A stretch of 64,000 nucleotides of DNA from Bacteroidota bacterium (lineage in GTDB: Bacteria > Bacteroidota > Bacteroidia > UBA4408): positions 35,357 to 99,356 of the forward strand of contig JAZKHE010000004.1 of NCBI GenBank assembly GCA_040385525.1, in the 5' to 3' direction. Of this stretch, positions 18,628 through 43,931 are shown piece by piece. The notes under the pieces were generated by a model, which was not told where the DNA came from, made no database searches, and saw only the letters and a list, made by a program, of their open reading frames with translations. The translations under genes and the position numbers were made by a program. Within the stretch, counting starts at the first letter, position 1, and the number at the start of each line of letters is the position of its first letter.

Positions 18628-21399
18628 ATGAAGAATAAATTTATTATTGCTGCTATTTCAATAATAGCAATTATTCCGTTTTTAATTCCAAAACAAAACG
18701 GCGTTAAACAAAAATTTGTTTTTAAAGGAAAACAAGCAATGGATGGACCATCAGAAAGATTATTGTGGGAATACAATCGTTTAGTTGATCCAGCAACAGG
18801 AAAAATACCAGCTAATATTCGCGAAAAAGAACTTGAGTTTGCAGCAACATTAAACAATAATACCAGTAATAAAACAAATGCTTTAGAACCATTATATTGG
18901 ACTAACAGAGGGCCAATTAACTTAGGCGGAAGAACTAGAGCTTTAGCTTTAGATGCAAGTTCAGAAAGTGTTATTTTAGCAGGTGCTGTTTCTGGCGGAA
19001 TGTGGAAATCTACAAATGGCGGAACAAGTTGGTATAAAACAACTTCACCTTCAGTTCAACAAAGCGTTACGTGTATTGCGCAAGATACAAGAGCTGGTAA
19101 AAGAAATATTTGGTATTATGGTTCTGGCGAAGGCTATGGCTCTTCTGCAACTGGCGATGGAGCTTTTTTTACTGGTAGTGGAATGTATAAATCTATCGAT
19201 AATGGAGAAACGTGGACATCGCTAACAGCAACAGCATCTAATACCCCTACAAATTTTGATAATATTTGGGACATAATATGGAATGTTGCTACAGATGCCT
19301 CTAACGAAACGCAAGACGAAGTTTACGCTGCAACTTATGGCGCAATTTGGAGAAGTGTAAATGGTGGAACAAATTGGGCAGCTGTTAGAGGTGGAAGTAA
19401 TGGTGATGCATATGCTACAGATGTAGCTGTTACACCTAGCGGAATAGTTTATGCTACAATTAGTAGCGATGGTGTTGGCAAAGGAATTTGGCGTTCTGTT
19501 GATGGTACAACTTGGACAAGTATTATTCCGCCAACATTCCCAACAACGTATAATAGAATTGTAATTGGTATTGATCCTAATAACGAAAACAATGTTTGGT
19601 TTTTAGGAGAAACTCCTGGTGCTGGAAAAACAACTACAAACTATCAAGGGGACCCTGAGCAAAATAGTTTATGGAAATACACCTACATTGCCGGAAACGG
19701 AAGTGGCGCAGATGGCAGCTGGACTGATTTATCAGCAAATTTACCACAAAATGGAACAGAGTTCGACAACTTTAATTCACAAGGTGGCTATGATTTATTA
19801 GTTAGAGTTAGTCCGTTTAATTCTAACCACGTAATTATTGGTGGAACAAATTTATTTTTCTCTACAGATGGTTTCGTAACAATGAACAATACAAAGCAAA
19901 TTGGTGGCTATGGAGTTGGAACAAGTATTCCTATTTTTACTTCCTATCCTAATCATCACCCTGATCAACACAATTTAATATTCTCAAAAACGAATAGCAA
20001 TGTTGTTTATTCATCGAGTGATGGTGGTGTAAATAAAACATCTAATTTATTTGACAATTCAGTTACGTGGACTACGTTGAACAACGGTTATTATTCATCA
20101 CAATTTTATACACTTGCAGTTGATCAATATACTAGTAGTGATATTATTTTAGCTGGTGCTCAAGATAACGGAACACAATTTGTAAATAGTTCTTCAAAAA
20201 ATAAACCTTGGGTAATGAGCGAAAATGGAGATGGTTCATTTTGCGCCATTGCTCGTAATGCTAAATATTTTTATACTTCGCGTCAACAAGGAATAGTTGT
20301 AAAAAGTAATATTGATATAAATACTGGGCTATTAATTTCATACACACGTATAGACCCAGACGCTGCGATTACAGCAGATTACGACTTTATTAATCCATTT
20401 ATTTTAGATGCCAATAACGATAACATAATGTATATTGCTGGAGGCAAACAAATCTTTAGATGCAGTAATTTAGCTCAGTTTACGATTGATAACACTTGGA
20501 ACAAAAAAACTACTGGCTGGGATGCATTAACGAATACTTTTGACGCAACAAGAAAAATAACTGCTTTGGCTTCGTCAAAAGGAGAAATTAAACGTTTGTA
20601 TTATGGAACAAACAACCAACGAGTTTATAAAATTGATAATCCAGAAAGCGGTAATACAACTCCTGTAAATATTACAAGTTTACAATTCCCAGCTGGGGCA
20701 ACAGTTTCGAGCATTGCTGTAGATCCAGAAAATGCGGATAGATTATTAGTTTGTTTTAGTAATTACGCTGTTTATAGTTTATTTTTAAGCGAAGATGGTG
20801 GATCAACTTTTACAAAAGTAGCAGGGAACTTAGAGCAAAATATTACAACAGGTGCTGGTAACGGACCATCATTTAGAGGCGCCACAATTTTACCTTTGCC
20901 AGATGGCACAAGAGTTTATTTTGTAGCTACAAGTATTGGTGTGTTTGCAACCGATAATTTAAGTGGAACTGCAACAATTTGGGAACAACAAAGCCCAACA
21001 CAAATAGGAAATTTAGTTTGTAGCACAATACTTAGCAGACCTACCGATGGTTTAGTTGTAGTTGGAACACATGGTAATGGAATTTATTCTACTCGCTACC
21101 CAATTGGCTTAAGTGCAAAAAATAAATCAGAAAATTCAATTAAAAAAATTGTAGTTTATCCAAATCCTGCCAGCAATTATATTAAAATATCTATTCCCGA
21201 AAATATAGTTAATACTTCAGGAAACGTTCGTATTATAAATGCAAATGGCAAATTAGTTTATAATGAAAATGAAAAGCTGAATCAAAACAAAATGATTTCT
21301 ACAAGCGATTTAAGCAATGGAAATTATTTTTTACTAATCGAAAATAAAGGAACAAAATACTCACAACAGTTTATAATCAATCACCATGAAAAAAATTAA
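18628..21399 (+). CDS. T9SS-secreted BNR/Asp-box repeat protein (sialidase/sortilin-like beta-propeller).
   Basis: Multiple SxDxGxTW Asp-box motifs (STNGGTSWY, SIDNGETWT, SVNGGTNWA, SVDGTTWT, SEDGGSTFT). C-terminal T9SS sorting domain VYPNPASNYIKISIP...NGNYFLLIENKGTKYSQQFII. Confidence 0.8.
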   Translation: MKNKFIIAAISIIAIIPFLIPKQNGVKQKFVFKGKQAMDGPSERLLWEYNRLVDPATGKIPANIREKELEFAATLNNNTSNKTNALEPLYWTNRGPINLGGRTRALALDASSESVILAGAVSGGMWKSTNGGTSWYKTTSPSVQQSVTCIAQDTRAGKRNIWYYGSGEGYGSSATGDGAFFTGSGMYKSIDNGETWTSLTATASNTPTNFDNIWDIIWNVATDASNETQDEVYAATYGAIWRSVNGGTNWAAVRGGSNGDAYATDVAVTPSGIVYATISSDGVGKGIWRSVDGTTWTSIIPPTFPTTYNRIVIGIDPNNENNVWFLGETPGAGKTTTNYQGDPEQNSLWKYTYIAGNGSGADGSWTDLSANLPQNGTEFDNFNSQGGYDLLVRVSPFNSNHVIIGGTNLFFSTDGFVTMNNTKQIGGYGVGTSIPIFTSYPNHHPDQHNLIFSKTNSNVVYSSSDGGVNKTSNLFDNSVTWTTLNNGYYSSQFYTLAVDQYTSSDIILAGAQDNGTQFVNSSSKNKPWVMSENGDGSFCAIARNAKYFYTSRQQGIVVKSNIDINTGLLISYTRIDPDAAITADYDFINPFILDANNDNIMYIAGGKQIFRCSNLAQFTIDNTWNKKTTGWDALTNTFDATRKITALASSKGEIKRLYYGTNNQRVYKIDNPESGNTTPVNITSLQFPAGATVSSIAVDPENADRLLVCFSNYAVYSLFLSEDGGSTFTKVAGNLEQNITTGAGNGPSFRGATILPLPDGTRVYFVATSIGVFATDNLSGTATIWEQQSPTQIGNLVCSTILSRPTDGLVVVGTHGNGIYSTRYPIGLSAKNKSENSIKKIVVYPNPASNYIKISIPENIVNTSGNVRIINANGKLVYNENEKLNQNKMISTSDLSNGNYFLLIENKGTKYSQQFIINHHEKN

Positions 21400-23119
21400 A
21401 TTAGTTGTACTTTCTATACTGTTTGCTTGCACTTTAGCGAGTGCTCAAACAAAAACTAAACTATTTTACGATAAAGATTGGAAAGTTACCGAATCGGAAA
21501 ATAACGCTGCTTTTTATAGAATTTATTATTCTGATAATCAAAATAAAAACATTTTTACAGTTACCGATTATTTTATAAGTGGTGAAAAACAGTGGGAAGG
21601 CAAAATGTCGTATTTAGATAAAAAAGATAATTCTAAAGATATTGCAGAAGGACATTGCACTTGGTATTACAAGAGCGGAAAAGTACAGCGCACAAGCTTT
21701 ATGGTTAAAAATAAAGAAGACAGCGTAACTAATTCTTATTATGAAAATGGAAATAAAATGAGTGAATCTCATTTTTTAAATACAGAGTTAAATGGTACTT
21801 CGCAAGAATGGTATGAGAGTGGGAAAACTAAATTTAAAGCCGAATTTGCAAAAGGAGTTTTAGTAAATAGCAAGTTTACGCAATGCGACGAAGCTGACCG
21901 TTGTCAAGAAGTTTTTATTGATGACTTTAAAAAAAATAATAACAAATGGCCTGTAGGAAAATACTCATCTTACGAAAGTAAAGTAGACGAAAAGAAAGGC
22001 TTAGTAATAAAATCGAAAACAATAAGTAGTAATTCGCAACTAATAAATTTAGAATTACCCAACGAAAAAAACTTTACAATAGAAACAGTTATAAAATTTA
22101 ACGGAGGCGATATTGCTTCGGCTCACGGCGTTATTTTTGGTTTTGAAGATTGGAATAATTATTACGCAGTACAAATTACTGCCAACGGATTTTATCGTTT
22201 TGAAAAAACAGAAAATGGCATTAATAAAGCTACGCAAGGCTGGACTTACACTCCTTACATTCAAAAAAATAAAAAGGCAAACTATATAAAAATTAGTAAA
22301 GTTTACGATGAAATTTATGTTGTAATAAACAACAATCCTATTGGTGTTATTGAGTTTGATGAACTAAAAGGAAAAAAATTGGGTTATGTTTTTGCAGGTA
22401 AAAAAGAAATAATGATTAACACTTTAGTTGTAAAAACTGATGATGGAGATTTTTATGGAAAGATGAAACCGCCAACAAAAAAAGATAAAATTTGGAAAGG
22501 AAACGGCACTGGATTTTTTGTTTCGAACGAAGGACATATAGTTACCAATTACCATGTTGTAGAATATGCAAAAGAAATTGAAATTGAAATATTAGTTGGC
22601 GAAACACAAAAAATATACAAAGCAAAAGTATTAAGCACCGATAAGCAAAACGATTTAGCTGTGGTGAAAATTGAAGACGAAAATTTTGTTCCATTTACTA
22701 GTATTCCGTTTACAATAAAAACAGATATTTCTGATGTTGGTACAAATGTTTTTGCATTGGGTTACCCAATGGCGCTGAACGTTATGGGAATGGAAGTTAA
22801 GTTTACAGATGGTAAAATAAGCTCTAAAACTGGCGCTCAAGGCGATATTGCAACCTATCAAACATCAGTTCCTGTTCAACCAGGCAATAGCGGTGGGCCA
22901 TTATTTGATTACGATGGTAATTTAATTGGTGTTATTAATTCTAAAATAATGGCAGCAGATAATGTATCATACGCTATTAAAGCAAACTTTATAAAAAACC
23001 TTTTAGATGTTTTACCAACTCCTGTAAAAATGCCTGATGGTAAAGAGTTAACGAATAAAACACTAACAGAAAAAATCAAAATTCTTTCCAACTTTGTTCC
23101 TATTATTAAAATAAAATAA
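21386..23119 (+). CDS. Secreted trypsin-like (S1/Do-type) serine protease with an N-terminal MORN/YwqK-like repeat region.
   Basis: Signal peptide [21 protein letters not shown]. Catalytic His (TNYHVV), Asp (NDLAVVKIE) and Ser (GNSGGPLFD). N-terminal repeats of the form YYxSGKxxxxxxF. Confidence 0.75.
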
Positions 23120-24936: not shown

Positions 24937-24966
24937 AAAAAAGCTCCTCATTTCTGAGAAGCTTTT
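24937..24966. terminator. Putative bidirectional intrinsic terminator hairpin at the island boundary.
   Basis: AAAAGCTCCTCA-TTTC-TGAGAAGCTTTT, a ~12-bp stem with one mismatch. T-run on the plus strand (TTTTG) and a longer one on the minus strand (TTTTTTGCTTTT). Confidence 0.45.
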
Positions 24967-24982: not shown

Positions 24983-25191
24983 ACCGCCAAAACCTCCAGA
25001 ACACTTGTATTTAGTAGTTTTTAATTTTTCAATTTTGCAAATTGTTAAACAATTGTGTTTTGATTAATAATATGACTTATTTTAATAAAAATTCGTTTTA
25101 TCATGCAAATCTATACTTTTTATTATAAAAACTCGCTATTCCGGTTAAAAACAGCGATTTATAAGACTTAAAGACCCTTTTGAATTTTCAA

Positions 25192-27264
25192 CTATGCTTT
25201 TATTGCATTTTCAAGCTCATTTATTTGGTTATTAATTACTGTTTCAAATTGAAAATAATCTTCTTTTTTAACAAACACATCATTTTTTACCCAAGCATCT
25301 GAAGCAAAATCACAAATCATTTTTTTAATCTCTTTTTCTTCAATTCTTGAAAAAGAAGTTAAGTGTTGTGCCATTTTAAGCAGCAATAATTTGTTGCGTT
25401 TTAAAATTGTTTCAGCCTCTTGTTCACATTCGTAAATTAAGGTCATTACTTCTTCACTATGTATTGATTTATGCACGATAGCTAAATCATCATGCGTATG
25501 TGAAAATCGGATAAATACAGGGTCATTACCCATCCCATATTCTTTTATAGCGCGATTAGCCATTTCACTTATTTTTTCAATATCACTAGAAACACCAGAC
25601 GAAGTTTGTTCTTCCCCAAAAATAATTTTTTCAGCCACATATCCTCCTAAACCAATTATTATTTCTTTTTTTAGAATTTCACGCGTGAGTGGTCCCTCTG
25701 GCATATTCACCATACAAAAACCTTCAGCAGTTGCTGAAACAGTTTTAGAAACAACTAAAGAAGGAATAATACGTAGTGTTAATGCAGCCAAAATAGCATG
25801 ACCTGATTCATGAACAGCTGTATGAGCTTGCAAATTTTTATTGTTAATTTTTCGGAGTTCGCCTACTTTAAGCATAGGCTTTTCAACATAAGTATTAATT
25901 GTATTATTTGCATGATCTTTAAAAACAAAAATGAAATTTTCATCTACATAATCCCAATTTACAGAATTTGTTTCTAGTTTTTTTTCAATAATTTCTAAAA
26001 CTATTTTACTTATACTTCCTTCAATTACATTTTTAACCGTTGTGAAAATTGGCCTTGTACCTTGAGCTGGATAAACCCCCTCGCTGTAAACTACATCAAC
26101 AACATTTTCGCTAAAATTAATTTCAAAATTGAAATATTCTTTTACATATATGTTTATTGCATTTAGTTTTTGGGTAATGATATCTCTAAAATTTTGATTG
26201 GTAAAAGAACGAAAGATGATATGATTATTTCCCAAACGGGCAATTTGTTCGTTTCGAAATCTTTCTTGAAGAGCTTTTTTTATATGCGCTACATTTATTT
26301 TTAGAGTTGCTTCATTCAATTCATCAGCACTAATATCTGGATTCATACTATGACTCATATAGTAAGCCTCATCTAAATTTCCTAAAACAAAAATAAGTCC
26401 TCTAGACAAATCCAATTGTTTAATAGCGGTTCTTTTGTTCATGCCTTCTATTAGCAAACGTTGAATGCCTTTTAAATCTGTATTTTCAATAATCTCCTTT
26501 AATTTGTTTCTAGTTATAGATAGATCATTATATAAATAGAAAACTCCATCAATAAAATCATTAGAAAGAAAATAATTGCTATTTACACTCTCTCCATTTC
26601 TATTAGCATTCTCAAAATAAAAATCGCTAAATGTATTTAAAAATTCACTTTCACTATTTATTACAACTCCATCTCTGATACCAACTCCTTTATCTTCGCA
26701 TTTAAGCAAATAAACCAGACAAATTTCTGCACGCACAACGTAGTAAGAATTATGATAAGGTATGTAATTCACTTTACCACTATCAAGTAAATCCCATATT
26801 ACTCTTAATTTATCTTTTCCTAATTCATTACCTTCTTTGTTTATCGTTCTCGCAAACTGAAATTCATCAAAACAAATTATACCCGGCTGCTCATGGAAAA
26901 ATTCTAGGTCATCAGTAAACATTCCTTTTATCCACGAAGCCGAATCTGATTCAAATTCACCCATATCCATTTGAACATATAAACGCTTGTAATCCAATAA
27001 TTCAACCATTTTGTTTACTAAAGCAGTTTTTCCAGATCCGGTTAAACCCCACATATTAATTACTGTTGGTCTTAGTTGAGCGTCAGGAAAAAGATACCAC
27101 GGTGTTATTAAATTAATTACTTCATCAATAATATTATTTAGTCCAATAAATTCTTTTTTCAAAGTTTTTTGTACTTCGTTTAATCTTTGTTTCTTTAAAA
27201 CTATATTATCGTATATATCGATTTTATTCATATTATTTTTTCTTTGTAAACTTTGATCCTTCAT
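25192..27264 (-). CDS. Cytoplasmic P-loop ATPase fused to an FtsH-like M41 zinc-metallopeptidase domain. No transmembrane segment.
   Basis: Walker A GLTGSGKT and Walker B ICFDEFQ in the N-terminal half. C-terminal HESGHAIL (HExxH) and the third-ligand region [40 protein letters not shown] match the FtsH protease domain. Its start overlaps the 3' end of prfH by 32 nt. Confidence 0.65.
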
Positions 27265-27862
27265 AAATTCTTTTAGGATTTCCGCGTTCGAGTAAGTTAT
27301 GATTATTCCACAGTTTATATTGCTCTTCCATTGCTTGATGTAATTGCCATTTAGTATACTCTTCTTGTAATTTTAATGCAGCAATTTTTTTATTCTGTAA
27401 TTGTGAACGGCTCTCATTTATAGTAATCTGTATTCCAGAGGAAATGTGTTTAGCTCTTACAGCCGTTTCCACTTTATTTACATTTTGACCTCCAGGGCCC
27501 GAAGAACGCATAGTTTGATATACAATATCCTTTTCATTCCATGGTGGGAGGTCTATTAAATTAATATTGTAAATTCCAATGAACCAGTTTTTTCGTTTAT
27601 GCAATTTTCTATATGGGCTTTGATTGATCCAGAGTAAAACACCTGTCCATGAATTTATAAAACTATCTACATTTTTACCTTTCAATTTAATAGATACAGA
27701 AGAATAAGTACCTTCTTCAATTCCTTTAGTTTGTTCAATTATTTCATACATCAATTTTAACTCATTTGCTTCTTTTAGCAATTCATTTAAAGCTAACGCA
27801 ACTGCCTTACAGCATTCTGAAGGGCCTTTTCCCGATGTTATTTGTATAATTTTTGTGTCCAT
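27233..27862 (-). CDS. prfH: Peptide chain release factor homolog PrfH (RF-H).
   Basis: 209 aa with GGQ motif ([16 protein letters not shown]). N-terminal ...[17 protein letters not shown] typical of PrfH. It lies immediately downstream of an rtcB, the classic rtcB-prfH pairing. Confidence 0.75.
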
Positions 27863-27904: not shown

Positions 27905-29308
27905 TTAACTTTTATTCATCCTTACTATTCTTGGCGTAAACGAGCCTTCAACATTAACGAGGCCGGATTGATTACTCATAACTGTTTCAATATCTTTATA
28001 AGCTAATGAAGATTCTTGGACACTACCACCAATTAATTTAACCTTGTGTTGATCAAGAGTTACGTTCATTTGTGATTTTGTTATTTTTTCACTTGCTTCT
28101 CTTCTCGACATTTTTCTTCCAGCTCCATGTGAAGCAGAGTTCAATGAACCTGAAGCTCCAACACCACTAACAATATAGCCTTTACTCGTCATACTACCCG
28201 GAATGATCCCCAATTCACCTTTAGCAGCAGGGGTAGCTCCTTTTCTGTGCACTATTAATTCTTGCCCATCGTGGATTTCTTTCCATGCAAAATTGTGATG
28301 GTTTTCAACTTTACAAATGGCTTTTAAACCCATAAAACGTTCTAGATTATTATGAATTACATCGTGGCAAGCTTTAGCATAGTCGCCTGCTAAATTCATC
28401 GATAACCAATATTCTTGGCCAGCTTCGTCATCCATACTCAACCATGCCATAGAACGCATTTCTTTTGGAAGTTTACATTTTTCCATTGCAATTTTTGTGT
28501 AAATACCTGCAATAGTAGCTCCCATTCCTCTAGACCCGCTGTGCGATAATAAGCCAATGTATTTCCCTGCAGCAATTCCTAAAGCGTTATTTTCATTTAT
28601 TTCCACATCACCAAATTCAACAAAATGATTTCCTGTACCCGAAGAACCTAGCTGATAACGAGCTTTTCCATGCAATCTTTTAAGCAAATCGGTTGCTTTA
28701 AATTCCCGTCGTTCCAAAACTTCATGATCTACATCAAAATCAAGCGTACCATCATTACCAAAATGAGTACATCTACGTAAAGCTTTTTGCAAATCATACT
28801 CTTTTTTAAGAATATAATTTTCTGGCAATTCATAGATACTTAAAGCCATTCTGCATCCAATATCTAAGCCAACTCCAAAAGGAATTACAGCGTTGTTAAC
28901 AGCAAGTGCAGCTCCAATTGGTAAACCATAACCATGGTGCGCATCAGGCATTAAAGCTCCTTTAACCGATACAGGTAAACGCATCGCTGCTTCCATTTGA
29001 AGAATAGCATTTTGACCAATAAGACGTTGACCGTAAATAGTAAAATCGCCAGTGTTTTTAAGCACATGAACTTCGTAACTGGTTTTAATTTTTGGCTTAC
29101 CACATAACTCATCTGATAAGGGTTTCAAAAATTCGTGTTCCAAATATTGTTCAGGATCTAAAAGAACGTTATTAATTATTTCTAATTTTTCATCTATCGA
29201 AAAGTGTTTATAGTTTTTCGACATAATATTTATAGCCACACTTTTGGCTATATCTGATGGGAAATCAAATTTTCTAAGATGCTTTCCCGTTATGAGATTT
29301 TTTCCCAT
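27905..29308 (-). CDS. rtcB: RtcB-family RNA 3'-phosphate ligase (paralog B, PrfH-associated).
   Basis: 467 aa. RtcB motifs GNHFVEFG, HSGSRGMG, SASHGAGRKMSR. Confidence 0.8.
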   Translation of the reverse strand: MGKNLITGKHLRKFDFPSDIAKSVAINIMSKNYKHFSIDEKLEIINNVLLDPEQYLEHEFLKPLSDELCGKPKIKTSYEVHVLKNTGDFTIYGQRLIGQNAILQMEAAMRLPVSVKGALMPDAHHGYGLPIGAALAVNNAVIPFGVGLDIGCRMALSIYELPENYILKKEYDLQKALRRCTHFGNDGTLDFDVDHEVLERREFKATDLLKRLHGKARYQLGSSGTGNHFVEFGDVEINENNALGIAAGKYIGLLSHSGSRGMGATIAGIYTKIAMEKCKLPKEMRSMAWLSMDDEAGQEYWLSMNLAGDYAKACHDVIHNNLERFMGLKAICKVENHHNFAWKEIHDGQELIVHRKGATPAAKGELGIIPGSMTSKGYIVSGVGASGSLNSASHGAGRKMSRREASEKITKSQMNVTLDQHKVKLIGGSVQESSLAYKDIETVMSNQSGLVNVEGSFTPRIVRMNKS

Positions 29309-29490
29309 GATATTTTTTAAATTTTATGGGCATGATTTTTCCTTTACAGTTTTTTTAATGCAAAGGATAAGTTCATAAAACGCATAGCATTTTTACCCTG
29401 TTTTTTTTTATAAAATGATTTTTTGGTTTCCGGATTTTTCTGTCTCCCCAGAATTTTATTTGTTTTTAGTTTATTTTGAAAAAATAAAAC

Positions 29491-29520
29491 AAATAAAAAA
29501 GCCCGGCATTAAACCGGGCT
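29491..29520 (-). terminator. Rho-independent terminator downstream of rtcB paralog A.
   Basis: Minus-strand reading: GCCCGGTTTAATGCCGGGC hairpin (6-bp GC-rich stem) followed by TTTTTTATTTG. Confidence 0.6.
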
Positions 29521-29909
29521 GAATATATTGATATTAGCAGCTTTTCGGCTTAAAACGTCGTATGTGAATTTGCTACTAACATAATTTCTTTTCTTTTTTT
29601 GGTTGGTGTTTTTTAATAAATCTGTCACAAATGTAAATCAAAAAATTGATTTGTCAAGTACAAAATATTTTTTTTTGCGTTAAAATTATTTCATTTATTT
29701 TTTTTAACCTTCAGAAGCATTGTAAAAAAAGGTGTTATAGAGGTTAATTAAAATGATTATAAATTTACCAAAGTCAAAAAAATTAAACAAAGTTTTTGTT
29801 GAGCTATCAGTTATAAAACAGAATAGGGTTTCAACCTAGATCCTTCAATTTGTCAATAGACAGACGACGATCAACCGAAGTGTCTCTATTCATGTCACTT
29901 TTGAATACT

Positions 29910-31331
29910 TTAATCTTCTCTGCTGCCATCATCTGCCATACGAACAATTTTAGGAGTAAATTTTGCAACTACATCAATTAGGTCTTTTTGTGAAGCCATA
30001 ACAGTTTCTATATTTTTATAAGCCATCGGTGCTTCATCTAAACCAGCACCAATTAATGTTACACCATGATCCTTTAGTACTTTTCTCATTTCGTCTTTAG
30101 AAATATTTTTAATTGCTTGTGTTCTACTCATTTGTCGACCTGCACCGTGTGATGCTGAATTAATTGCATTTGCTTCACCTTTACCTCTTACTAAAAAACC
30201 AGGGGCTGTCATTGATCCAGGTATAATACCCATTACATCTTTAGAAGCAGGAGTAGCACCTTTTCTATGAACAATTACTTCTTCTCCGTTCCACATCTCC
30301 TTCCAAGCAAAATTATGATGGTTCTCTACTTTAGCCAATACTTCTGCACCAATAGCTTTAGCTAAACGATTGTGAATTATTTCATGACAAGCTGATGCAT
30401 AATCACCAGCTAAATTCATTGCCATCCAATACTCTTGTCCTTCAGCAGAATTCATATCTAAGTAAGCTAAATTTGCTGCTTCTTTAGGAAGTTTACAAAT
30501 TTCTTTCGCTACTTTGGTATAATATCCTGCTATTGTTGCACCAAATCCTCTTGATCCCGAATGTGTTAACAACGCTAAGTATTTTCCTTTTTTGATATTT
30601 AATTTTTCATCATCATTTTCAAATTCAATAATTCCAAATTCTACAAAGTGATTTCCGCCACCTGAAGAACCTAATTGTTCAACAGCTTTTTGTTGAAGAT
30701 TTTTTACAAACGGTGTCATATTAAACTCTGTTCTATCTAATATTGAATGCTCAGCTCTATATTTACCATGCCATCCAGCGCCAGCGCCAAATTTAGTCCA
30801 GGCAATTAACTCTCTTTTATATTTGCTTTCATTCTCTATAAAATGATTCTCATTAATATCATAGATGGACAAAGCCATTCTACAACCAATATCAACGCCT
30901 ACACCATAAGGAATAATAGCGTTTTTTGTAGCCAATACTCCACCAATTGGTAAACCATACCCTTGATGAGCATCAGGCATTAAAGCACCAGCAACTGTTA
31001 CGGGCAATTTCATGGCTATTTCCATTTGATTAATTGCGCCTTGCTCAATGTTTTCTGAACCAAAAATAGAATAAAACATTCCTTGCTCTTTTAATGCAAC
31101 AGTAGCATCTTCATTTGGTTTTTCAATTAATTTTTGAGCAATAGCTTCAAGAACTTCGTCGTCTAAAAAGTTCTCTGGATATTGAACTACCTTAGTTAAA
31201 ATTGCGATTACTTCCTCTTTCTCTAATTCAGCATAATTTTGCTCAACTACTTTAATGGCTATTCCAATTACTTTTCCTTCAGGATAACCTAAAGCTTTTA
31301 ATTCAGCTCCTGATACGTTAACTATTTTCAT
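29910..31331 (-). CDS. rtcB: RtcB-family RNA ligase (paralog A).
   Basis: 473 aa. GGGNHFVEFG, HSGSRGFG, SASHGAGRQMSR. Roughly 50-55% identical to paralog B by eye. Monocistronic: an operator-like palindrome lies upstream and a terminator downstream. Confidence 0.8.
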   Translation of the reverse strand: MKIVNVSGAELKALGYPEGKVIGIAIKVVEQNYAELEKEEVIAILTKVVQYPENFLDDEVLEAIAQKLIEKPNEDATVALKEQGMFYSIFGSENIEQGAINQMEIAMKLPVTVAGALMPDAHQGYGLPIGGVLATKNAIIPYGVGVDIGCRMALSIYDINENHFIENESKYKRELIAWTKFGAGAGWHGKYRAEHSILDRTEFNMTPFVKNLQQKAVEQLGSSGGGNHFVEFGIIEFENDDEKLNIKKGKYLALLTHSGSRGFGATIAGYYTKVAKEICKLPKEAANLAYLDMNSAEGQEYWMAMNLAGDYASACHEIIHNRLAKAIGAEVLAKVENHHNFAWKEMWNGEEVIVHRKGATPASKDVMGIIPGSMTAPGFLVRGKGEANAINSASHGAGRQMSRTQAIKNISKDEMRKVLKDHGVTLIGAGLDEAPMAYKNIETVMASQKDLIDVVAKFTPKIVRMADDGSRED

Positions 31332-31418
31332 CTTGTTTTTTTTAATTATGATACAAAATAAATACTAAACTACGCAGTCAAATTGCGCAGTTGATTTTTT
31401 TTCATTTTTTTTTAAAAT

Positions 31419-31440
31419 CCCTCGCCCAAATTGACGAGGG
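31419..31440 (-). terminator. Possible terminator hairpin after the SPFH gene.
   Basis: CCCTCG-cccaaattga-CGAGGG hairpin 10 nt after the stop. Only a short U-run (AUUUUA) follows on the minus strand. Confidence 0.3.
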
Positions 31441-31450
31441 ATGCTACAAT

Positions 31451-32551
31451 TTATTTACCTGGAACAAATATCTGTTTTAACTGATCCACTAAATGAGTTC
31501 CTCCTGACAATGAAATATTATTAATTTTCTCTGCAATCTTCTCTACATATTCCATTTCTTTCAATTTAAACAACATAGTGTTTTCTTCCATCAATTTAGC
31601 AGTATTCAATAAACTTCTAGTTGAAGCAGTTTCTTCTCTTCTCATGATGGTATTAGCTTGAGCCTTTTTCTCCGCAACTAATACTTGATTCATAATATCT
31701 TTCATATCTCCTGGCAAAATTATATCTCTGATACCACTTCCTTTCAATACTACTCCCAAAGATTCTACTTTTTCAGACATCGACTCCATAACATAAGCTG
31801 AAATAGATTCTTTTTTTTCTAACAACTCATCTAATGTTAATGAACCTATGAACTCTCTCAAAGCTAATTGCAACAGTACATATAGTTGTTTATCATACTC
31901 CTTGTTATTTACTAACGCCTTAACAATATCTTTTATATTGTATTGAGCATAGAAATTAACTCTTAGTGCTGCTTTGTCTTTTGTCAAAATCTCTTGTCCA
32001 GCAATTTCCATTTGCATAGTTCTTAAATCAGCTCTTGAAATCACAATAGAAGTGCTATTCTTCCAAAAGTTGTAAGTACCTGACTCCATGATTTTATGAA
32101 ATTTACCATCAACATACATCACTGCTTTTTCATGTGCTTCAACTACAAAGTTCCTCACAAATGGGGCGATTTCTTTTTTAGTCAATAAAGATTTATCGAT
32201 GTCATTATCAATTTCAATTTGATTTAAATCAATGATATTAAAATTGTAATTTATCAAGCCTTTCCAAAAAATGTATCTACCAGCATTTAATACAGTAGTA
32301 AATAATCCATTTTCGTATTGTAAAGCAATTTCATTATTTTTTACTTCAACAATCAAAGTTGCATTTAGAAAATCTTCATTTTTTAATAAGATATTTATAT
32401 TAACTGGCGCTATTAATGGTTTTGACATATCACAGTCAAATACAACCATAGTTGGCCACAACCAATATGTACCTTCGTTTAAAACTTTTACCAAATTATC
32501 ATTTTTAAACACTAAGCCTTTTTTCCAGGCATTTATTTTTACTCTTTTCAT
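31451..32551 (-). CDS. SPFH/band-7 (stomatin/HflKC-like) domain protein, apparently without a TM anchor.
   Basis: SPFH core ...TKDKAALRVNFYAQYNIKD...LDELLEKKESISAYV...GVVLKGSGIRDIILPGDMKDIMNQVLVAEKKAQANTIMRREETA. N-terminal triple repeat of a GTYxFW hairpin motif. Confidence 0.6.
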   Translation of the reverse strand: MKRVKINAWKKGLVFKNDNLVKVLNEGTYWLWPTMVVFDCDMSKPLIAPVNINILLKNEDFLNATLIVEVKNNEIALQYENGLFTTVLNAGRYIFWKGLINYNFNIIDLNQIEIDNDIDKSLLTKKEIAPFVRNFVVEAHEKAVMYVDGKFHKIMESGTYNFWKNSTSIVISRADLRTMQMEIAGQEILTKDKAALRVNFYAQYNIKDIVKALVNNKEYDKQLYVLLQLALREFIGSLTLDELLEKKESISAYVMESMSEKVESLGVVLKGSGIRDIILPGDMKDIMNQVLVAEKKAQANTIMRREETASTRSLLNTAKLMEENTMLFKLKEMEYVEKIAEKINNISLSGGTHLVDQLKQIFVPGK

Positions 32552-32869
32552 TTTATTTTTGTTTTAATGATGGATGAATCCGGCATCATACCATCGGGGT
32601 TATTTAATTTTTTATAAAAAAGAAGGAACAATTCATTCATTAATTTTAAGCGAAGTTCGACTTAAGCTCATGTCTCAAATGATGGTTTATATAAATTCAT
32701 AATCCATTAAAAGGAAAACTATACTTTATAGAAAGCAGCATCTTTACAGAAGCGGTATCCGTGCCCCTTGGCAAATCATCAATTGCTTTTTACAAATTTA
32801 TATGCTAAAGCTGAATGAGATTATCCCTTCTTAATTAGGAGCCTTTTTTATAGAAGTTGGCGTCTTCTT

Positions 32870-33011
32870 CCACTGAAACCACAATTCAGCGCTCTAACCA
32901 ACTGAGCTATTCCAATTTTGAGCTGGAAGCAGGATTCGAACCTGCGCTTTGAGGTTGCTGCTCTACCAACTGAGCTATTCGCTATTAACGAAATGGGAAT
33001 CGAACCCATGA
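32870..33011 (-). pseudogene. Cluster of degenerate tRNA-like fragments: a 5'-truncated tRNA-His(GTG)-like piece, a related 5'-truncated piece fused to an unrelated T-arm/acceptor, and an isolated T-arm+acceptor 3' piece.
   Basis: Minus-strand reads GGAATAGCTCAGTTGGTTAGAGCGCTGAATTGTGGTTTCAGTGG (D-arm plus anticodon arm, loop TTGTGGT gives GTG), GCGAATAGCTCAGTTGGTAGAGCAGCAACCTCAAAG|CGCAGGTTCGAATCCTGCTTCCAGC, and CATGGGTTCGATTCCCATTTCGTTAA. None folds into a complete cloverleaf. ORF 32848-33072 is spurious. Confidence 0.5.
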
Positions 33012-33403
33012 CACACAACGTGAGACACACAAAATAATTACGCAGAATACAAGCAATCAAAGATTGTTGCACTATGGGGAAAGGAAACCCTCATCTTGGC
33101 GCAAAAATTTATTTATGCATCATTCTCCTCTTTTCAGAGAAGATTTTTAATCCTGATTTTCAGGAAATATTTTCAAGGAACTTTATTACTTTAAATCAAC
33201 GATGCAAATTTTATACTCATGTACGCAGTCGAATTGCGTACTAAAATTATTTTTAAATAGTTTATCAATTTAAAATGTAAATGACTGGTTTTCAACAAGA
33301 AAAAATCACTAGTAATTAGGTTAATTTTAAATCTACGCAAATACAATGCGTAGATGATTAATAAATAGTATATTTACGTTAACTAATTTTTCAAAACTTC
33401 AAT

Positions 33404-34417
33404 ATGCCAATTAATAAATTAGCTTTAGTTAGATACAAAACAATAGATAATTGTTTGCAAAATCGTTTTAGAAAATGGACATTAGAAGACTTAATGGAAG
33501 CCTGTTCTGATGCGATTTATGAATATGAAGGAATTACAAATGGAGTAAGCAAACGCACTATACAACTAGATATTCAGAACATGCGCAGTGAAAAACTAGG
33601 ATATAATGCCCCTATTATAGTTACAGATAAAAAATATTATAGCTATGAAGAAAAGAATTATAGTATTACTAATATTCCTTTAACACAACAAGATTTAAGC
33701 ACCTTGAATGAAGTACTTGATGTATTAAAACAATTTAAAGGTTTTGGTTATTTCCAAGAATTAAACGGAATGGTTACTCGTTTAGAAGATAAACTTTATA
33801 AACAACAACATAGAGGCAAGTCATATATTGATTTCGAAAAAAACGAATTATTAAAAGGATTAATACATATTGATGCACTACATAAAGCAATTATTAATAA
33901 GAAAACAATTGAAGTAACTTATCAATCATTTAAAGCAAAGCTTCCACAGCAAATTGTATTTTATCCCTATTTATTAAAAGAATACCGCAATAGGTGGTTT
34001 ATTTTAGGTGCAAATAAAAATGGAAAAACAATAATGATATTAGCATTAGATAGAATAGAAAAATTTAAAGAATTAAATTCTGAAAAATATCACAAATCAG
34101 AATTTGATGTTAATACTTATTTTAATGATGTAATTGGTGTTTCAAAAATGCCCACCCAGAAGCCACAACTTATTGTTATGAAAATAATTAAAGAGCATGC
34201 TCCATATATAATTACAAAACCCATGCATAGTTCACAAAAAATTTTGAGTGAAGATTCTGAAGGAGTTATCTTTTCAATTGAAGTTATTTGGAATTTTGAG
34301 CTGGAAAGAGAAATTCTTGGCTTTGCTGAACATTTAAAAATAGTTAGTCCTAAAAGATTATCAGGAAGAATACAATCACGAATGAAGAATACACTCACAA
34401 AATATCAAATGGAATAA
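33404..34417 (+). CDS. WYL-domain transcriptional regulator (HTH_11 + WYL; BrxR/CapW-like architecture).
   Basis: N-terminal HTH (GVSKRTIQLDIQNM). WYL hallmark YRNRWFILGANKNGKTIMILALDRIEKF. Two palindromic TACGCA-N7-TGCGTA sites lie upstream. Confidence 0.65.
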   Translation: MPINKLALVRYKTIDNCLQNRFRKWTLEDLMEACSDAIYEYEGITNGVSKRTIQLDIQNMRSEKLGYNAPIIVTDKKYYSYEEKNYSITNIPLTQQDLSTLNEVLDVLKQFKGFGYFQELNGMVTRLEDKLYKQQHRGKSYIDFEKNELLKGLIHIDALHKAIINKKTIEVTYQSFKAKLPQQIVFYPYLLKEYRNRWFILGANKNGKTIMILALDRIEKFKELNSEKYHKSEFDVNTYFNDVIGVSKMPTQKPQLIVMKIIKEHAPYIITKPMHSSQKILSEDSEGVIFSIEVIWNFELEREILGFAEHLKIVSPKRLSGRIQSRMKNTLTKYQME

Positions 34418-35983: not shown

Positions 35984-38509
35984 ATGAAAACTCTACTAAA
36001 CAAAATCCTAAATGATAAAACATTATTTACAGGTATAATTTTTATTATTTTATCATTAGTTGTATTTATTATACCTGAACTAAATTCTTTAAAAATCAAT
36101 AACAACGCATTTTTAGGAGTGTTTTTTGTTAATTATTGTTTTATAATCATTTATATTATAGTACTGCTAGGAAAAACATTTTTTCAAAAATGGAAATTTT
36201 TAAACTTCAAATTTGAATACGCCACAGTACTTTCAATTCTATATTTGATAAGTGCATTTTCATTAAACAGAGAAATACCAATTTTTGAAGACTCAGTATT
36301 ATGGGTAAGTATATTTTTGTGTATCCAGTGTACTTCAATTATACTATTATCGCTTTTAGACGAAAACTCATCTAAACTACTTAAACATATTTTAATCGGT
36401 ATAAATGGAGTTGGAATAGTGTTTTATATTTATTACACAATCTATTTAACTCCCTTTTATTTAATTGGAATGATTGGTGGTCTTTTTTTTGGGGTTGGCT
36501 TACATGTGTTTGTACCTGCTTTTTGCGTGGTGTTAATATTACTTAGAGTTAGAAAAGAATATAAAATAAATAAGCAATTTATTTATTCTTTTGTTGTTGG
36601 CGTATTAATAGCTAGCACAGCTACTATCCTATTTGTATCACAATGGCAAAAATATTCAACAAAAATTAATTACATCATTAACGACCAAGTAGCTAATGAT
36701 AATAATTTGCCACTTTGGGTTAATCTAAGTCAACAAATTGAAAAAAACCATTTTACTGAAAAAATATTTAAAAGCAATTTAGTTTATACGGTTTACAACA
36801 ACAATAAATTCTGGCAATTTGGATTTCCGCAAGAGTTGTTTGATGAAGTTAAAAAACACGACCCATTAGTAATGATTGCTTCATTTTTCTCAAATGTTCC
36901 AGATATAAGTGATAAAGAAAAAATTAAAATATTAGAATCAATGTATGATTCTAGACACCAAGCTCAAGAAAGACTTTGGTCTGGCGATATGCTACAAACA
37001 TCTAATGTAATAAGTAATGTTAAACTGTTTCCTGAATATAGAATTGCTTACACCGAAAAAATAATAAGCATTAGTAATAATGATGTAAAAAACAATTGGA
37101 ATAACGAAAAAGAGGCAATCTATACTTTTTATTTACCAGAGGGAGGAGTTGCAACATCACTTTCGTTATGGATTAATGGAAAAGAAGAAAAAGGAATTTT
37201 AACTACAAAAAGCAAAGCAGATTCGGCATACAAAACAATTGTTGGTGTAGAATCAAGAGATCCATCTGTGGTTCATTGGCAAGAAGGAAATACATTATCT
37301 GTTAGAGTTTTTCCATGCACATCTAAAGAAAACAGACGATTTAAATTAGGCATTACCGCTCCTTTAAAAAAATATAAGAATAAACTAGTATATCAAAACA
37401 TCTATTTTGATGGTCCTAATTCATTAAACGCAACAGAAAGCGTACAAATTCAAATTACTAAAGATGTTGCTAACATTGAGTTTCCGTTTTTATTTGAAGA
37501 AATTAAAAACAACGTTTATAAAGCCGAAAAAAAATATAGCCCTTATTGGGAAATAAATTTTGATGAAGTTCAATTATCAAAAGAAACTTTTTCTTTTGAT
37601 AATAACACCTACTCTATTTCTAATTATTCAAAAACCTATGAAAGTTTTAATGCTCAAAAAATATACCTAGATATAAATTCATCATGGACAAAAACTGAAA
37701 TGGATGAAATTTGGAAAGCAATTAAAACCAAAGAAGTGTATGTGTTTCAAGACGAAATGATAATTGTAAACAATAATAATTTAAAAAAATTGTTTGAACA
37801 ATTACAGAAAAAAAACTTTAGTCTTTTTCCTTTCGATAAAATTGAAATGCCCGAAAAATCATTGGTTATTTCTAAAAGCACATCAACTTCTCCTAATTTA
37901 AAAGACATTCAAGAATCTGTATTTTTTGAAGAGCTTAAAAAACAATTACAAAAAAACACACAAGTTAGAATGTTCAATTTTGGAGATAATCTTTCGCCCT
38001 ACTTAAAAAGCTTAAAAGAATTAAGAGTGTTTGTATACGACGAAGGAAGCACTAAAAAACTAAGTGATAACATTTTAAACTCCAAATTTATATTAAATCA
38101 AGAAAATGATTCTTCAATTGTAATTGATAACGCAGAAATTATAATACGAAAAGAATTAGGAAATAAAAATGAAAATGCACCCGATCATTTATTAAGACTA
38201 TATGCTTACAACAATGTTTTAAAAACTGTAAGCAAAAATTATTTCAATAATAATTTTATAAATGATGATGTAATAAGTGAAGCCGAATTAGCATATGTTG
38301 TTACTCCTGTATCAAGTTTAATTGTTTTAGAAACAAAACAAGATTACGAAAGATTTGATATTGTAGCGAGTAAAAACAGTTTAAAAAATGCCTCTATAAA
38401 ATCATCTGGCGCAGTGCCAGAACCGCATGAATGGTTGCTAATTATTATTGCAGCTTCAATAATAATTTACTTACGTTTTAAACCCTACTTTATTAAAAAA
38501 GCAGCATAA
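35984..38509 (+). CDS. Polytopic membrane protein with a VIT (vault protein inter-alpha-trypsin)-like domain and a C-terminal PEP-CTERM-like sorting signal. Putative exosortase substrate/partner.
   Basis: ~8 N-terminal TM helices. VIT-like block EAIYTFYLPEGGVATSLSLWINGKEEKGILTTKSKADSAYKTIV. C-terminus ...GAVPEPHEWLLIIIAASIIIYLRFKPYFIKKAA (PEP motif + TM + basic tail). Its stop overlaps the exosortase start. Confidence 0.6.
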   Translation: MKTLLNKILNDKTLFTGIIFIILSLVVFIIPELNSLKINNNAFLGVFFVNYCFIIIYIIVLLGKTFFQKWKFLNFKFEYATVLSILYLISAFSLNREIPIFEDSVLWVSIFLCIQCTSIILLSLLDENSSKLLKHILIGINGVGIVFYIYYTIYLTPFYLIGMIGGLFFGVGLHVFVPAFCVVLILLRVRKEYKINKQFIYSFVVGVLIASTATILFVSQWQKYSTKINYIINDQVANDNNLPLWVNLSQQIEKNHFTEKIFKSNLVYTVYNNNKFWQFGFPQELFDEVKKHDPLVMIASFFSNVPDISDKEKIKILESMYDSRHQAQERLWSGDMLQTSNVISNVKLFPEYRIAYTEKIISISNNDVKNNWNNEKEAIYTFYLPEGGVATSLSLWINGKEEKGILTTKSKADSAYKTIVGVESRDPSVVHWQEGNTLSVRVFPCTSKENRRFKLGITAPLKKYKNKLVYQNIYFDGPNSLNATESVQIQITKDVANIEFPFLFEEIKNNVYKAEKKYSPYWEINFDEVQLSKETFSFDNNTYSISNYSKTYESFNAQKIYLDINSSWTKTEMDEIWKAIKTKEVYVFQDEMIIVNNNNLKKLFEQLQKKNFSLFPFDKIEMPEKSLVISKSTSTSPNLKDIQESVFFEELKKQLQKNTQVRMFNFGDNLSPYLKSLKELRVFVYDEGSTKKLSDNILNSKFILNQENDSSIVIDNAEIIIRKELGNKNENAPDHLLRLYAYNNVLKTVSKNYFNNNFINDDVISEAELAYVVTPVSSLIVLETKQDYERFDIVASKNSLKNASIKSSGAVPEPHEWLLIIIAASIIIYLRFKPYFIKKAA

Positions 38510-43926: not shown

Positions 43927-43931
43927 TTAAA

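Follow-up and report, generated by a model that had tools for sequence, protein, structure and literature searches.

Results

The window, by which we mean the whole stretch of 64,000 nucleotides analyzed here, comes from a Bacteroidota genome (contig JAZKHE010000004.1) and carries an RNA-repair island with a three-gene unit, rtcB-prfH-X (Table 1). We use X as the label for the last gene of this unit, which encodes an AAA+/M41 protease and is followed by terminator-like hairpins. The prfH gene is genuine (TIGR03072, 234.8 bits; cutoff, 166.65), and the RtcB encoded by the first gene (RtcB_a) falls below the cutoff of TIGR03073 "release_rtcB" (140.1 versus 271.8 bits). The upstream half of the island (29910..32551) contributes a second RtcB gene and an SPFH/Band-7 gene, a pair that is also found upstream in several related loci. 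A WYL-WCX transcription regulator, encoded 6 kb from X, is a candidate for control of the island, and a defense island lies nearby. A PADLOC 2.0 search returned a match for the WYL regulator only and none for X, PrfH, either RtcB, or the SPFH protein, and membership of X in a known defense system was rejected on this ground. DUF2779 was found neither in the window nor in 80 GTDB loci.

Table 1. Features of the X locus by position in the window; residue numbers follow the 690-residue longest reading frame of X
Feature	Position	Strand	Details
Second terminator-like hairpin	24939-24966		Stronger than the hairpin at 25133..25157
Terminator-like hairpin	25133..25157	-	35 nt past the X stop
X, revised gene	25192..27231	-	679 aa; ATG 27231 to TAG 25192-25194
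M41 zinc peptidase (residues 477-648) and C-terminal helical tail (649-690)	25195..25836	-	HESGH 25798-25812; E545 25630-25632; D561 25582-25584
Lid (ClpB_D2-small) and C-terminal beta-sheet (residues 353-462)	25879..26208	-	Sensor-2 R404 26053-26055 in QGTRP
AAA+ large subdomain, second part (residues 286-352)	26209..26409	-	Sensor-1 N296 26377-26379; 11-residue segment with R343 26236-26238
Family-specific insertion (residues 170-285)	26410..26757	-	Helical bundle and short hairpin, between strands GKVNYIP and IKQLDLS
AAA+ large subdomain, first part (residues 61-169)	26758..27084	-	Walker A GLTGSGKT 27025-27048; DMGEF; Walker B IICFDE 26863-26880
N-terminal helices (residues 12-60)	27085..27231	-	Equivalent to linker helix and "xxGQ" segment before Walker A in Hsp100 D2 (HMM alignments to ClpE, ClpB, and Hsp104 D2)
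11 extra codons of the longest X frame	27232..27264	-	Missing from 28 of 30 aligned homologs
prfH	27233..27862	-	209 aa, short type, directly upstream of X; GGQ at residues 124-126
RtcB_a RNA ligase	27905..29308	-	467 aa, ~95-aa N-terminal extension; Pfam RtcB E 1.9e-73; first gene of rtcB-prfH-X
RtcB_b, second RtcB	29910-31331	-	Pfam; upstream half of the island
SPFH/Band-7 protein	31451-32551	-	Pfam; upstream half of the island
WYL-WCX transcription regulator	33404..34417	+	Pfam WYL and WCX; divergent from the YrlA-like RNA/SPFH/RtcB_b unit

The longest reading frame of X is uninterrupted (25192..27264, reverse strand, 690 amino acids). In a 31-sequence alignment, nearly all homologs start at a Met aligned with M12, and the NCBI annotation gives the same protein 679 amino acids. 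On this comparison, the true start is almost certainly the ATG at 27231, and the 11 extra codons are probably untranslated. As this ATG sits 1 nt past the prfH stop codon (TAA, 27235-27233), the two genes abut and do not overlap. The 32-nt overlap reported in an earlier note on this DNA appears because the longest frame was taken, and is probably an artifact of reading-frame calling. The same note had coupled X translationally to prfH, and membership of the two genes in one operon is supported by the 1-nt spacer and the terminators after X. Terminator-like sites numbered 6, compared to 2.3 expected. The Bacteroidetes promoter motif TAnnTTTG, which occurs 108 times in the window compared to 128 expected, shows no enrichment and was therefore not used as evidence for operon starts.

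The C-terminal half of the protein, described earlier as an FtsH-type protease, proves to be a complete M41 peptidase as judged by profile matches. Pfam Peptidase_M41 (PF01434; MEROPS M41) matches residues 477 to 648 (E value 3e-22; 79.9 bits; cutoff, 29.9) and spans model positions 6 to 190 of 191, and the same Pfam model matches 31 of 31 family members. The predicted M41 fold is found in X. In addition to HESGH, a further segment of 28 residues was confirmed. H485, E486, and H489 line up with HEAGH of YME1 and FtsH. D561 corresponds to the Asp of GSD/SND, which supplies the third zinc ligand in crystal structures of FtsH. Kyte-Doolittle hydropathy of X and 31 relatives gave no membrane anchor, in agreement with the earlier note, and rules out a cryptic transmembrane segment. 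The N terminus of X is hydrophilic, as it is across the 31 family members, and the sole 19-residue window above 1.6 (residues 491 to 509, 1.68) lies inside the M41 core, directly past HExxH, and contains R and K.

In the N-terminal half, the Walker A and Walker B motifs noted earlier are both in place, and HMM alignments to ClpC, ClpE, ClpB, and Hsp104 D2 add the sensor-1 Asn, the arginine finger, and the sensor-2 Arg. The motifs of X pair with those of Clp proteins as GLTGSGKT/GPTGVGKT, DMGEF/DMSEY, RFRxEQIARLG/FRPEFLNRxD, and QGTRP/GARPL; the last two counterparts are those of ClpC/ClpB, and the third pair marks R343 as the predicted arginine-finger equivalent. The ClpB_D2-small lid (PF10431) matches X with 25.6 bits (cutoff, 21.9) and is found at an E value of <0.01 in 23 of 31 family members, and X stays below the threshold of PF00004, the classical-clade, FtsH-type AAA model. 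In a PDB profile search, FtsH/YME1 were matched only by the peptidase half and ClpC/ClpB/Hsp104/Skd3 only by the ATPase half. The top structural neighbors of the AAA part alone are Hsp100/Clp D2 modules. We conclude that the ATPase is, by these sequence and profile comparisons, an AAA+ module of the Hsp100/Clp D2 type (HCLR clade) with a helical insertion of ~115 residues. The earlier description of a divergent, nonclassical NTPase is correct insofar as the module is not a classical AAA of the FtsH type, but it is an AAA+ after all, rather than a non-AAA P-loop protein.

The AlphaFold2 model of full-length X is of moderate quality (pLDDT 77, pTM 0.56). Its N-terminal helices span residues 2 to 38 and 43 to 58. 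Strands 164 to 167 and 282 to 285 flank the insertion directly ahead of the sensor-1 strand (290 to 293), an arrangement compatible with a pre-sensor-1 beta-hairpin that would bear the insertion at its tip. The RKH loop of ClpX presumably occupies the topologically equivalent place. The insertion varies only moderately (pairwise identity, 43%) and keeps conserved aromatic positions. X has no recognizable aromatic-hydrophobic-Gly pore loop 1 (GYVG); the stretch from strand 2 to Walker B instead holds a loop of 12 residues, and across the wider family the segment that joins strand 2 to helix 2 varies. A variable pore-loop region is unusual in a threading motor. An acidic EFESDS pore loop was considered as a functional clue and discarded, since its invariance is limited to the close subfamily and 2 of 143 diverse representatives have it.

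These features bear on the case that the earlier note itself had named as fatal to its reading, an ordinary ftsH paralog, truncated or divergent, in which a standard AAA module accompanies a cryptic membrane segment. Some sources call homologs "cell division protease FtsH," and the top whole-chain Foldseek matches are FtsH structures. However, X combines the lack of a transmembrane segment with an Hsp100-D2 motor, and it scores only 68.9 bits against the FtsH equivalog TIGR01241 (cutoff, 600), where the match is confined to model positions 411 to 598, the peptidase part. An FtsH-type AAA was rejected on the evidence of Pfam, NCBIfam, HMM alignments, and structural neighbors, and we consider that the ordinary paralog can hardly be upheld. 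FtsH, YME1, and AFG3L2 have a transmembrane/periplasmic N terminus and a classical-clade motor with a second region of homology, whereas X lacks that N terminus and has a D2-type motor with a sensor-2 Arg and a D2-small lid. It also differs from the FtsH family in its extra 115-residue insertion, in the missing MFVG/GYVG-like pore loop, and in genomic setting, which is housekeeping for FtsH and RNA-repair or WYL cassettes for X.

Conservation was assessed for X and 140 diverse relatives that are 28 to 52% identical to it. K79, D133, E134, N296, R404, H485, E486, and D561 are invariant in all 141 sequences, and R343 and H489 are each kept in 140. Both predicted activities are, by this measure, under selection. 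X can thus be described from its sequence as a soluble ATPase covalently fused to an intact M41 zinc peptidase, with both sites essentially invariant. Clustering at 50% identity divides the family into about 1000 clusters, and it occurs in 240 GTDB species, mostly Bacteroidota. We found no name or description for it in the literature, and an earlier mention in the work of Burroughs and Aravind (2016, PMC5062991; 2019 supplement) is possible. The "FtsH ternary systems," which have tandem FtsH-type AAA domains with MoxR-vWA, are distinct from X (PMC7159879).

Among 67 species-level loci of close relatives (those coupled to RtcB are at least about 47% identical to X), RtcB lies directly upstream of X on the same strand in 39, with PrfH between the two genes in 19 of these and without PrfH in 20. 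The gap is 20 nt or less from PrfH to X in 17 of 20 related loci (including overlaps of 1 to 31 nt), from RtcB to X in 16 of 19, and from either gene to X in 33 of 39 overall. As this spacing of a few nucleotides is conserved across many species, we argue that the linkage is functional rather than incidental. Most PrfH systems do without X, however, as it is present at only 10 of the 72 nearest PrfH loci. This survey, together with the RtcB-X operons that lack PrfH, rules out PrfH as an obligate partner. What endures of the proposed tie to prfH is the conserved tight coupling; PrfH is not the main partner of the family, which accompanies RtcB with or without it. Because 28 of the 67 close loci and all 11 informative divergent loci have X without RtcB or PrfH, its core function cannot be specific to PrfH-released chains.

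In the divergent representatives, the adjacent gene is typically a regulator: WYL-WCX directly adjoins X in 8 of the 11, and in 6 of these 8 it precedes X on the same strand, separated from it by 50 to 140 nt. Such an arrangement, also seen in a Cyclobacteriaceae-like subgroup where WYL flanks X, could mean that X is an anti-repressor that inactivates the regulator upon damage and so turns on the rtcB-prfH regulon, its operon position giving positive feedback. There is precedent in established gene pairs of a protease and a repressor (ImmA/ImmR and IrrE/DdrO). The adjacency fits an action of X on the regulator just as well as an action of the regulator on X, since regulators of this kind usually adjoin the genes they control. 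Moreover, the known anti-repressor metalloproteases are small and ATP independent, whereas X has a complete predicted unfoldase. X belongs to the payload operon in the window and in the 39 related loci, where it does not adjoin the regulator, and 55 of the 67 GTDB loci have no WYL gene within 6 kb (12 do). We therefore regard an anti-repressor role as unlikely.

The divergent loci also contain genes for GmrSD, McrB-like, SNF2, RHS, and transposase proteins, and 4 of the 11 have DUF2779, a predicted 3'-5' exonuclease (PMC3985635), near X. With WYL regulators being typical of defense loci (PADLOC WYL matches), this setting would suit a stand-alone WYL-X(-DUF2779) anti-phage or stress cassette. 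X would then degrade phage or host proteins as a defense or abortive effector, and its placement with rtcB-prfH would reflect only a shared regulon or island. Against this stand the missing PADLOC match for X, the tight RtcB/PrfH spacing among close relatives, and the outcome of a tblastn search of 50,697 phage and 72,556 plasmid records, in which the ATPase half had no match. Carriage on mobile elements was rejected on that result, and we judge an effector role of this kind to be quite improbable. Separate WYL-X(-DUF2779) cassettes may nevertheless represent an undescribed stress or defense module.

Discussion

We propose, with a probability of about 0.5, that X is a damage-inducible cytosolic AAA+ protease, taken into a ribosome-repair operon to serve as its proteolytic arm. 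By analogy with the FtsH, Lon, and Clp machines, it would assemble as a ring, probably a hexamer, in which ATP hydrolysis would unfold proteins and deliver them into the M41 chamber; the insertion is a candidate docking site. Transcription may be set by a nucleic-acid-damage-sensing WYL regulator, the commonest neighbor of the wider family. In the lineage studied here, X would be wired into the PrfH/RtcB rescue-and-repair operon, clearing proteins that are left by ribotoxin attack or that block repair. The likeliest substrates would be untagged truncated nascent chains freed by PrfH or proteins stuck on damaged ribosomal particles, and the toxin itself seems a less likely target.

To our knowledge, RtcB with PrfH is the only system that reverses colicin-E3-type ribosome damage. 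The unit in the window resembles the Escherichia coli RtcB2-PrfH module in having a genuine prfH with a same-strand RtcB gene ahead of it. The characterized system, which reverses ColE3/CdiA-CT cleavage of 16S rRNA, has two genes (PMC9304027), whereas here X is added and the RtcB has an N-terminal extension and scores under the TIGR03073 cutoff. The published model spans peptide release, subunit splitting, and 16S religation; it is silent on the fate of the released chains and of the toxin and leaves open a need for extra factors (PMC9304027). RFH, unlike tmRNA, adds no degradation tag (Baranov et al., PMC1586002). The accessory genes described for PrfH encode TPR, Pol-beta NTase, Zn-ribbon, and charged-helix proteins, with no AAA-M41 protease among them (PMC6514570).

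The toxin deserves separate consideration, as repair without removal of the nuclease would presumably be a futile cycle. X might unfold and degrade the invading ribotoxin domain (ColE3-like, CdiA-CT-like, or a T6SS rRNase/tRNase), so that repair by RtcB is not wasted. Its operon partners act on ColE3/CdiA-CT damage (PMC9304027), FtsH, itself an M41 protease, processes several nuclease colicins (E3, D, E2, and E7) as they are imported (PMC4026351), and the island is close to a defense island. However, the candidate recognition insertion, with the pairwise identity given above, is not hypervariable, as direct recognition of diverse toxins would require; no immunity-like or toxin-binding domain was detected in X; and X also occurs in WYL/DUF2779 contexts without RNA-repair genes. 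Overall, we think toxin clearance improbable.

A broader version of the proteolytic-arm reading, which we consider doubtful, is that X founds an unrecognized class of ATP-dependent protease, with a Clp-D2 motor, an M41 chamber, and a novel docking insertion, that acts as the effector of a WYL-controlled damage response. In the rtcB-prfH operon, it would extract and degrade the stalled chain or an obstructing protein on damaged ribosomal particles so that the 30S subunit can be religated. If this were true, X would be a bacterial functional counterpart of Cdc48-Vms1 and provide the third, proteolytic step in the reversal of ribotoxin damage. The parallel with eukaryotic ribosome quality control is conceptual only: Cdc48/p97 with Vms1 likewise sets a release-factor-like peptidyl-tRNA hydrolase beside an AAA+ unfoldase, which removes the stalled chain (PMC6514570), but Cdc48/p97 belongs to another AAA clade, has no homology to X, and works with a ubiquitin system that has no equivalent here. 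Should X be the missing proteolytic step, ribosome repair would have three parts (release, religation, and clearance), and cultured Chryseolinea, Ohtaekwangia, and Dawidia strains, among them the carriers Chryseolinea serpens DSM 24574 and Ohtaekwangia koreensis DSM 25262, would offer a tractable entry to protein disposal after attack on translation.

The motor of X resembles the D2 modules of ClpB, ClpC, ClpE, ClpA, Hsp104, and Skd3/CLPB in its linker helix, Walker motifs, sensors 1 and 2, arginine-finger segment, and lid with C-terminal beta-sheet. Unlike Hsp100 proteins, it is predicted to form a single ring, without D1, N-domain, M-domain, or canonical GYVG pore loop, and has a big insertion before the sensor-1 strand. 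The ClpP-docking IGL/IGF loop is also missing, as would be expected for a motor whose peptidase is covalently fused. Lon (LonA/LonB) is related to X in sequence only through the AAA core, its peptidase being of the Ser-Lys S16 type and not a zinc-dependent M41. ClpXP/ClpAP, HslUV, Lon, FtsH, and the proteasome make up the textbook set of ATP-dependent proteases. The X family joins the motor of one branch (Hsp100/Lon-like) to the peptidase of another (FtsH).

Architecture of the protease

We conclude that the protein encoded next to prfH has a real, well-supported protease architecture, apparently undescribed so far, in a biologically suggestive setting. Translation of the longest open reading frame (690 aa, whose residue numbers are used here) recovered, at rechecked coordinates, all of the motifs quoted in the earlier note. 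A profile of residues 12 to 470 matched ClpC (E = 2e-9), ClpE, Hsp104, ClpB, ClpC1, and Skd3 in the PDB, and with this profile the ATPases of FtsH, YME1, and AFG3L2 gave no match even at E ≤ 10. The Clp/Hsp104 matches form two collinear blocks, one running through the linker helix, Walker A, and DMSEY and the other through FRPEFLNR, the lid, and GARPL, and ClpB_D2-small exceeds its Pfam cutoff. On these grounds, the predicted motor is an AAA+ ATPase of the Hsp100/Clp D2 type (HCLR clade). The N-terminal half, in which the earlier note saw a divergent NTPase, is not FtsH-like.

The peptidase belongs to family M41. PF00004 (AAA) scores under threshold, and TIGR01241 (FtsH), whose cutoff is 600 bits, reaches 68.9 bits, matching through the peptidase part alone. 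No membrane segment was found, as the earlier note had proposed: the sole hydropathy peak (residues 491 to 509) lies in the buried helix following HExxH. The protein therefore departs from FtsH in anchor, classical AAA module, and equivalog score, which rules out an ordinary FtsH paralogue with a standard AAA domain and a cryptic transmembrane segment. The motor agrees with Hsp100 D2 modules in Walker A, Walker B, sensor 1, the arginine finger, sensor 2, and the D2-small lid. A GYVG-type pore loop is absent, however, and the equivalent loop varies across the wider family, which is a real reservation about threading as the mechanism. The closest design analogue is Lon, which likewise unites an HCLR motor and a peptidase in one soluble chain, although its peptidase is different.

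The family is large and has no name of its own. When 1.84 billion cluster representatives were searched with a profile, 1,009 proteins matched with E ≤ 1e-30; bit scores of the top 150 run from 450 to 1,123, and most of these align over their full length. Relatives are encoded in 240 GTDB species genomes, with named genera including Chryseolinea, Ohtaekwangia, Chryseosolibacter, Dawidia, and Parachryseolinea. Sources call them "hypothetical protein," "Peptidase family M41," or "cell division protease FtsH," the last of which is wrong. Across 140 representatives that share 28 to 52% identity with the window protein, there is little or no variation at the key ATPase residues (Walker A Lys, Walker B Asp-Glu, sensor-1 Asn, R343, and sensor-2 R404) or at H485, E486, H489, E545, and D561 of the peptidase, which argues that selection has kept both predicted activities. 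Pairwise identity is 73 to 78% in the ATPase core, 61% in the M41 domain, and 43% in the insertion (residues 170 to 285).

Gene model and RtcB/PrfH neighborhood

Features of the window discussed in the text
Feature	Coordinates	Strand	Remarks
T9SS-sorted protein; trypsin-like/MORN protein	18628-23119	+	one flank of the island
AAA+/M41 protease	25192-27231	-	revised start (M12); longest ORF 25192-27264
prfH	27233-27862	-	between rtcB_a and the protease gene
rtcB_a	27905-29308	-	member of three-gene unit
Gap between RtcB genes	29309-29909	-	promoter-like TTGACA-16-TACATT 29657-29630; strong terminator 29520-29500
rtcB_b	29910-31331	-	second RtcB; paired with SPFH gene
Tandem YrlA-like (Y RNA-like) and tRNA-like modules	32845-33017	-	just upstream of SPFH-rtcB_b
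WYL-WCX regulator	33404-34417	+	divergent from upstream SPFH/RtcB_b/RNA genes
ORFs of 212 and 171 aa	34492-35961	+	no Pfam match; directly after WYL-WCX
VIT-domain protein; exosortase-family protein	35984-39831	+	other flank of the island
HsdR (type I restriction R subunit); unannotated 244-aa ORF; AAA_15/AAA_21 ATPase with DUF3696; GmrSD-family endonuclease	40888-47214	-	defense island, 14-20 kb from the protease

The 32-nt overlap with prfH noted earlier is a property of the longest reading frame and probably not of the gene, because nearly all homologues start at a Met matching M12 (31-sequence alignment, 51 to 72% identity), the NCBI record of the identical protein (P0002) has 679 aa, and the ATG at 27231 lies one nucleotide past the prfH stop (TAA, 27235-27233). 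Close spacing outlives this correction: the gap is ≤20 nt behind PrfH in 17/20 related loci (overlaps of 1 to 31 nt counted) and behind RtcB in 16/19.

The protease gene ends its unit, with two terminator-like hairpins downstream; upstream of rtcB_a lie a 600-nt gap, the second RtcB, the SPFH gene, and the RNA modules. Among 67 species-level close loci with sufficient upstream sequence, 19 have RtcB-PrfH-protease, 20 have RtcB without PrfH, and 28 have neither (one, L001, was binned by hand, as its prfH overlaps the protease gene); the adjoining RtcB is always of the RtcB_a type. The reverse survey started from the 72 closest metagenomic PrfH loci for which downstream sequence exists: RtcB lies upstream in 60/70 whereas the protease follows in only 10/72, so the protease is accessory to PrfH systems. 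Known accessory genes of prfH-RtcB systems encode TPR, Pol-beta NTase, Zn-ribbon, and charged-helix proteins (PMC6514570); this protease type is not among them, and an earlier mention in Burroughs & Aravind (2016) or in the supplement of their 2019 paper is possible.

Both RtcB proteins carry an N-terminal extension of ~95 to 100 aa before the Pfam domain. Because they score far under the NCBIfam "release_rtcB" (TIGR03073) and PRK09588 cutoffs, the PrfH-linked ligase is, by score, not of the characterized RtcB2 type. The promoter-like element and terminator between the RtcB genes suggest a small RNA or leader of ~110 to 130 nt; Rfam gave chance-level matches only in this gap. The RNA modules score 46.2 (E = 6.7e-8) and 30.7 bits with Rfam YrlA; with the tRNA model, whose gathering score is 29, they reach 35.3 and 26.6 bits. 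ARAGORN called no tRNA there, and the ORFs scanned included no Ro60 gene.

Proposed function

In the current repair model, ColE3/CdiA-CT cut 16S rRNA at A1493/G1494, PrfH frees the peptide from the damaged 70S ribosome, the subunits part, possibly with extra factors, and RtcB2 reseals the 30S (PMC9304027). This model is silent on untagged truncated chains and persisting toxin. An early paper pointed out that RFH differs from tmRNA in not tagging proteins for degradation (PMC1586002). A cotranslated unfoldase-protease fits this gap. By analogy with FtsH and Lon, the Clp-type motor of a ring would pass substrate into an M41 chamber, and in this lineage the protease may serve the PrfH/RtcB system as its proteolytic component. 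That its substrate is the ribotoxin itself seems improbable, even though FtsH, itself an M41 protease, processes nuclease colicins as they are imported (PMC4026351).

The core activity must be more general, namely, protein clearance in a nucleic-acid-damage response, because the protease is also found beside RtcB only, beside WYL only, and beside a nuclease. RtcB and PrfH are absent from the vicinity of all 12 divergent cluster representatives sampled. In 8 of the 11 informative loci, the protease has a WYL(-WCX) gene as an immediate neighbor, in 6 of these upstream on the same strand, 50 to 140 nt away. A gene for DUF2779, a predicted 3'-5' exonuclease (PMC3985635), is present in four, and several loci lie amid GmrSD, McrB-like, SNF2, RHS, and transposase genes. 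Across the 67 GTDB loci, an iterated WYL profile places WYL within 6 kb in 12. Expression may thus be under WYL regulators. We regard the reverse relation, degradation of the WYL regulator by ImmA/IrrE-like logic, as unlikely. The WYL-protease(-DUF2779) cassette may be an undescribed stress or defense module; that it is a defense cassette whose RtcB link is regulatory only appears slightly less likely still. PADLOC returned no match for the protease, and tblastn with the ATPase half found no relatives on 50,697 phage or 72,556 plasmid records.

Cassettes of this kind were seen in L084, L168, L172, and L170, and also in L081, L085, L167, L169, and L171; in the window, the two ORFs after the WYL-WCX gene hold the slot that the protease occupies there. 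In a Cyclobacteriaceae/Flammeovirgaceae-like subgroup without RtcB (L029, L034, L037, L044, L059), two WYL-type genes flank the protease in four of the five loci, one divergent upstream and one (~285 aa) convergent ~0.8 kb downstream; in L037, a short contig, only the downstream gene was found. The genes flanking the island in the window are ordinary Bacteroidota surface genes; the organism is a low-GC (~31%) Bacteroidota MAG. A longer family variant (P0213, loci L082/L083; 835 aa) has extra sequence in its N-terminal half, its best stretch matching only profile positions 254 to 674, and is surrounded in a phage-like layout by many small same-strand ORFs without Pfam match, a thioredoxin, and a DnaJ-like gene.
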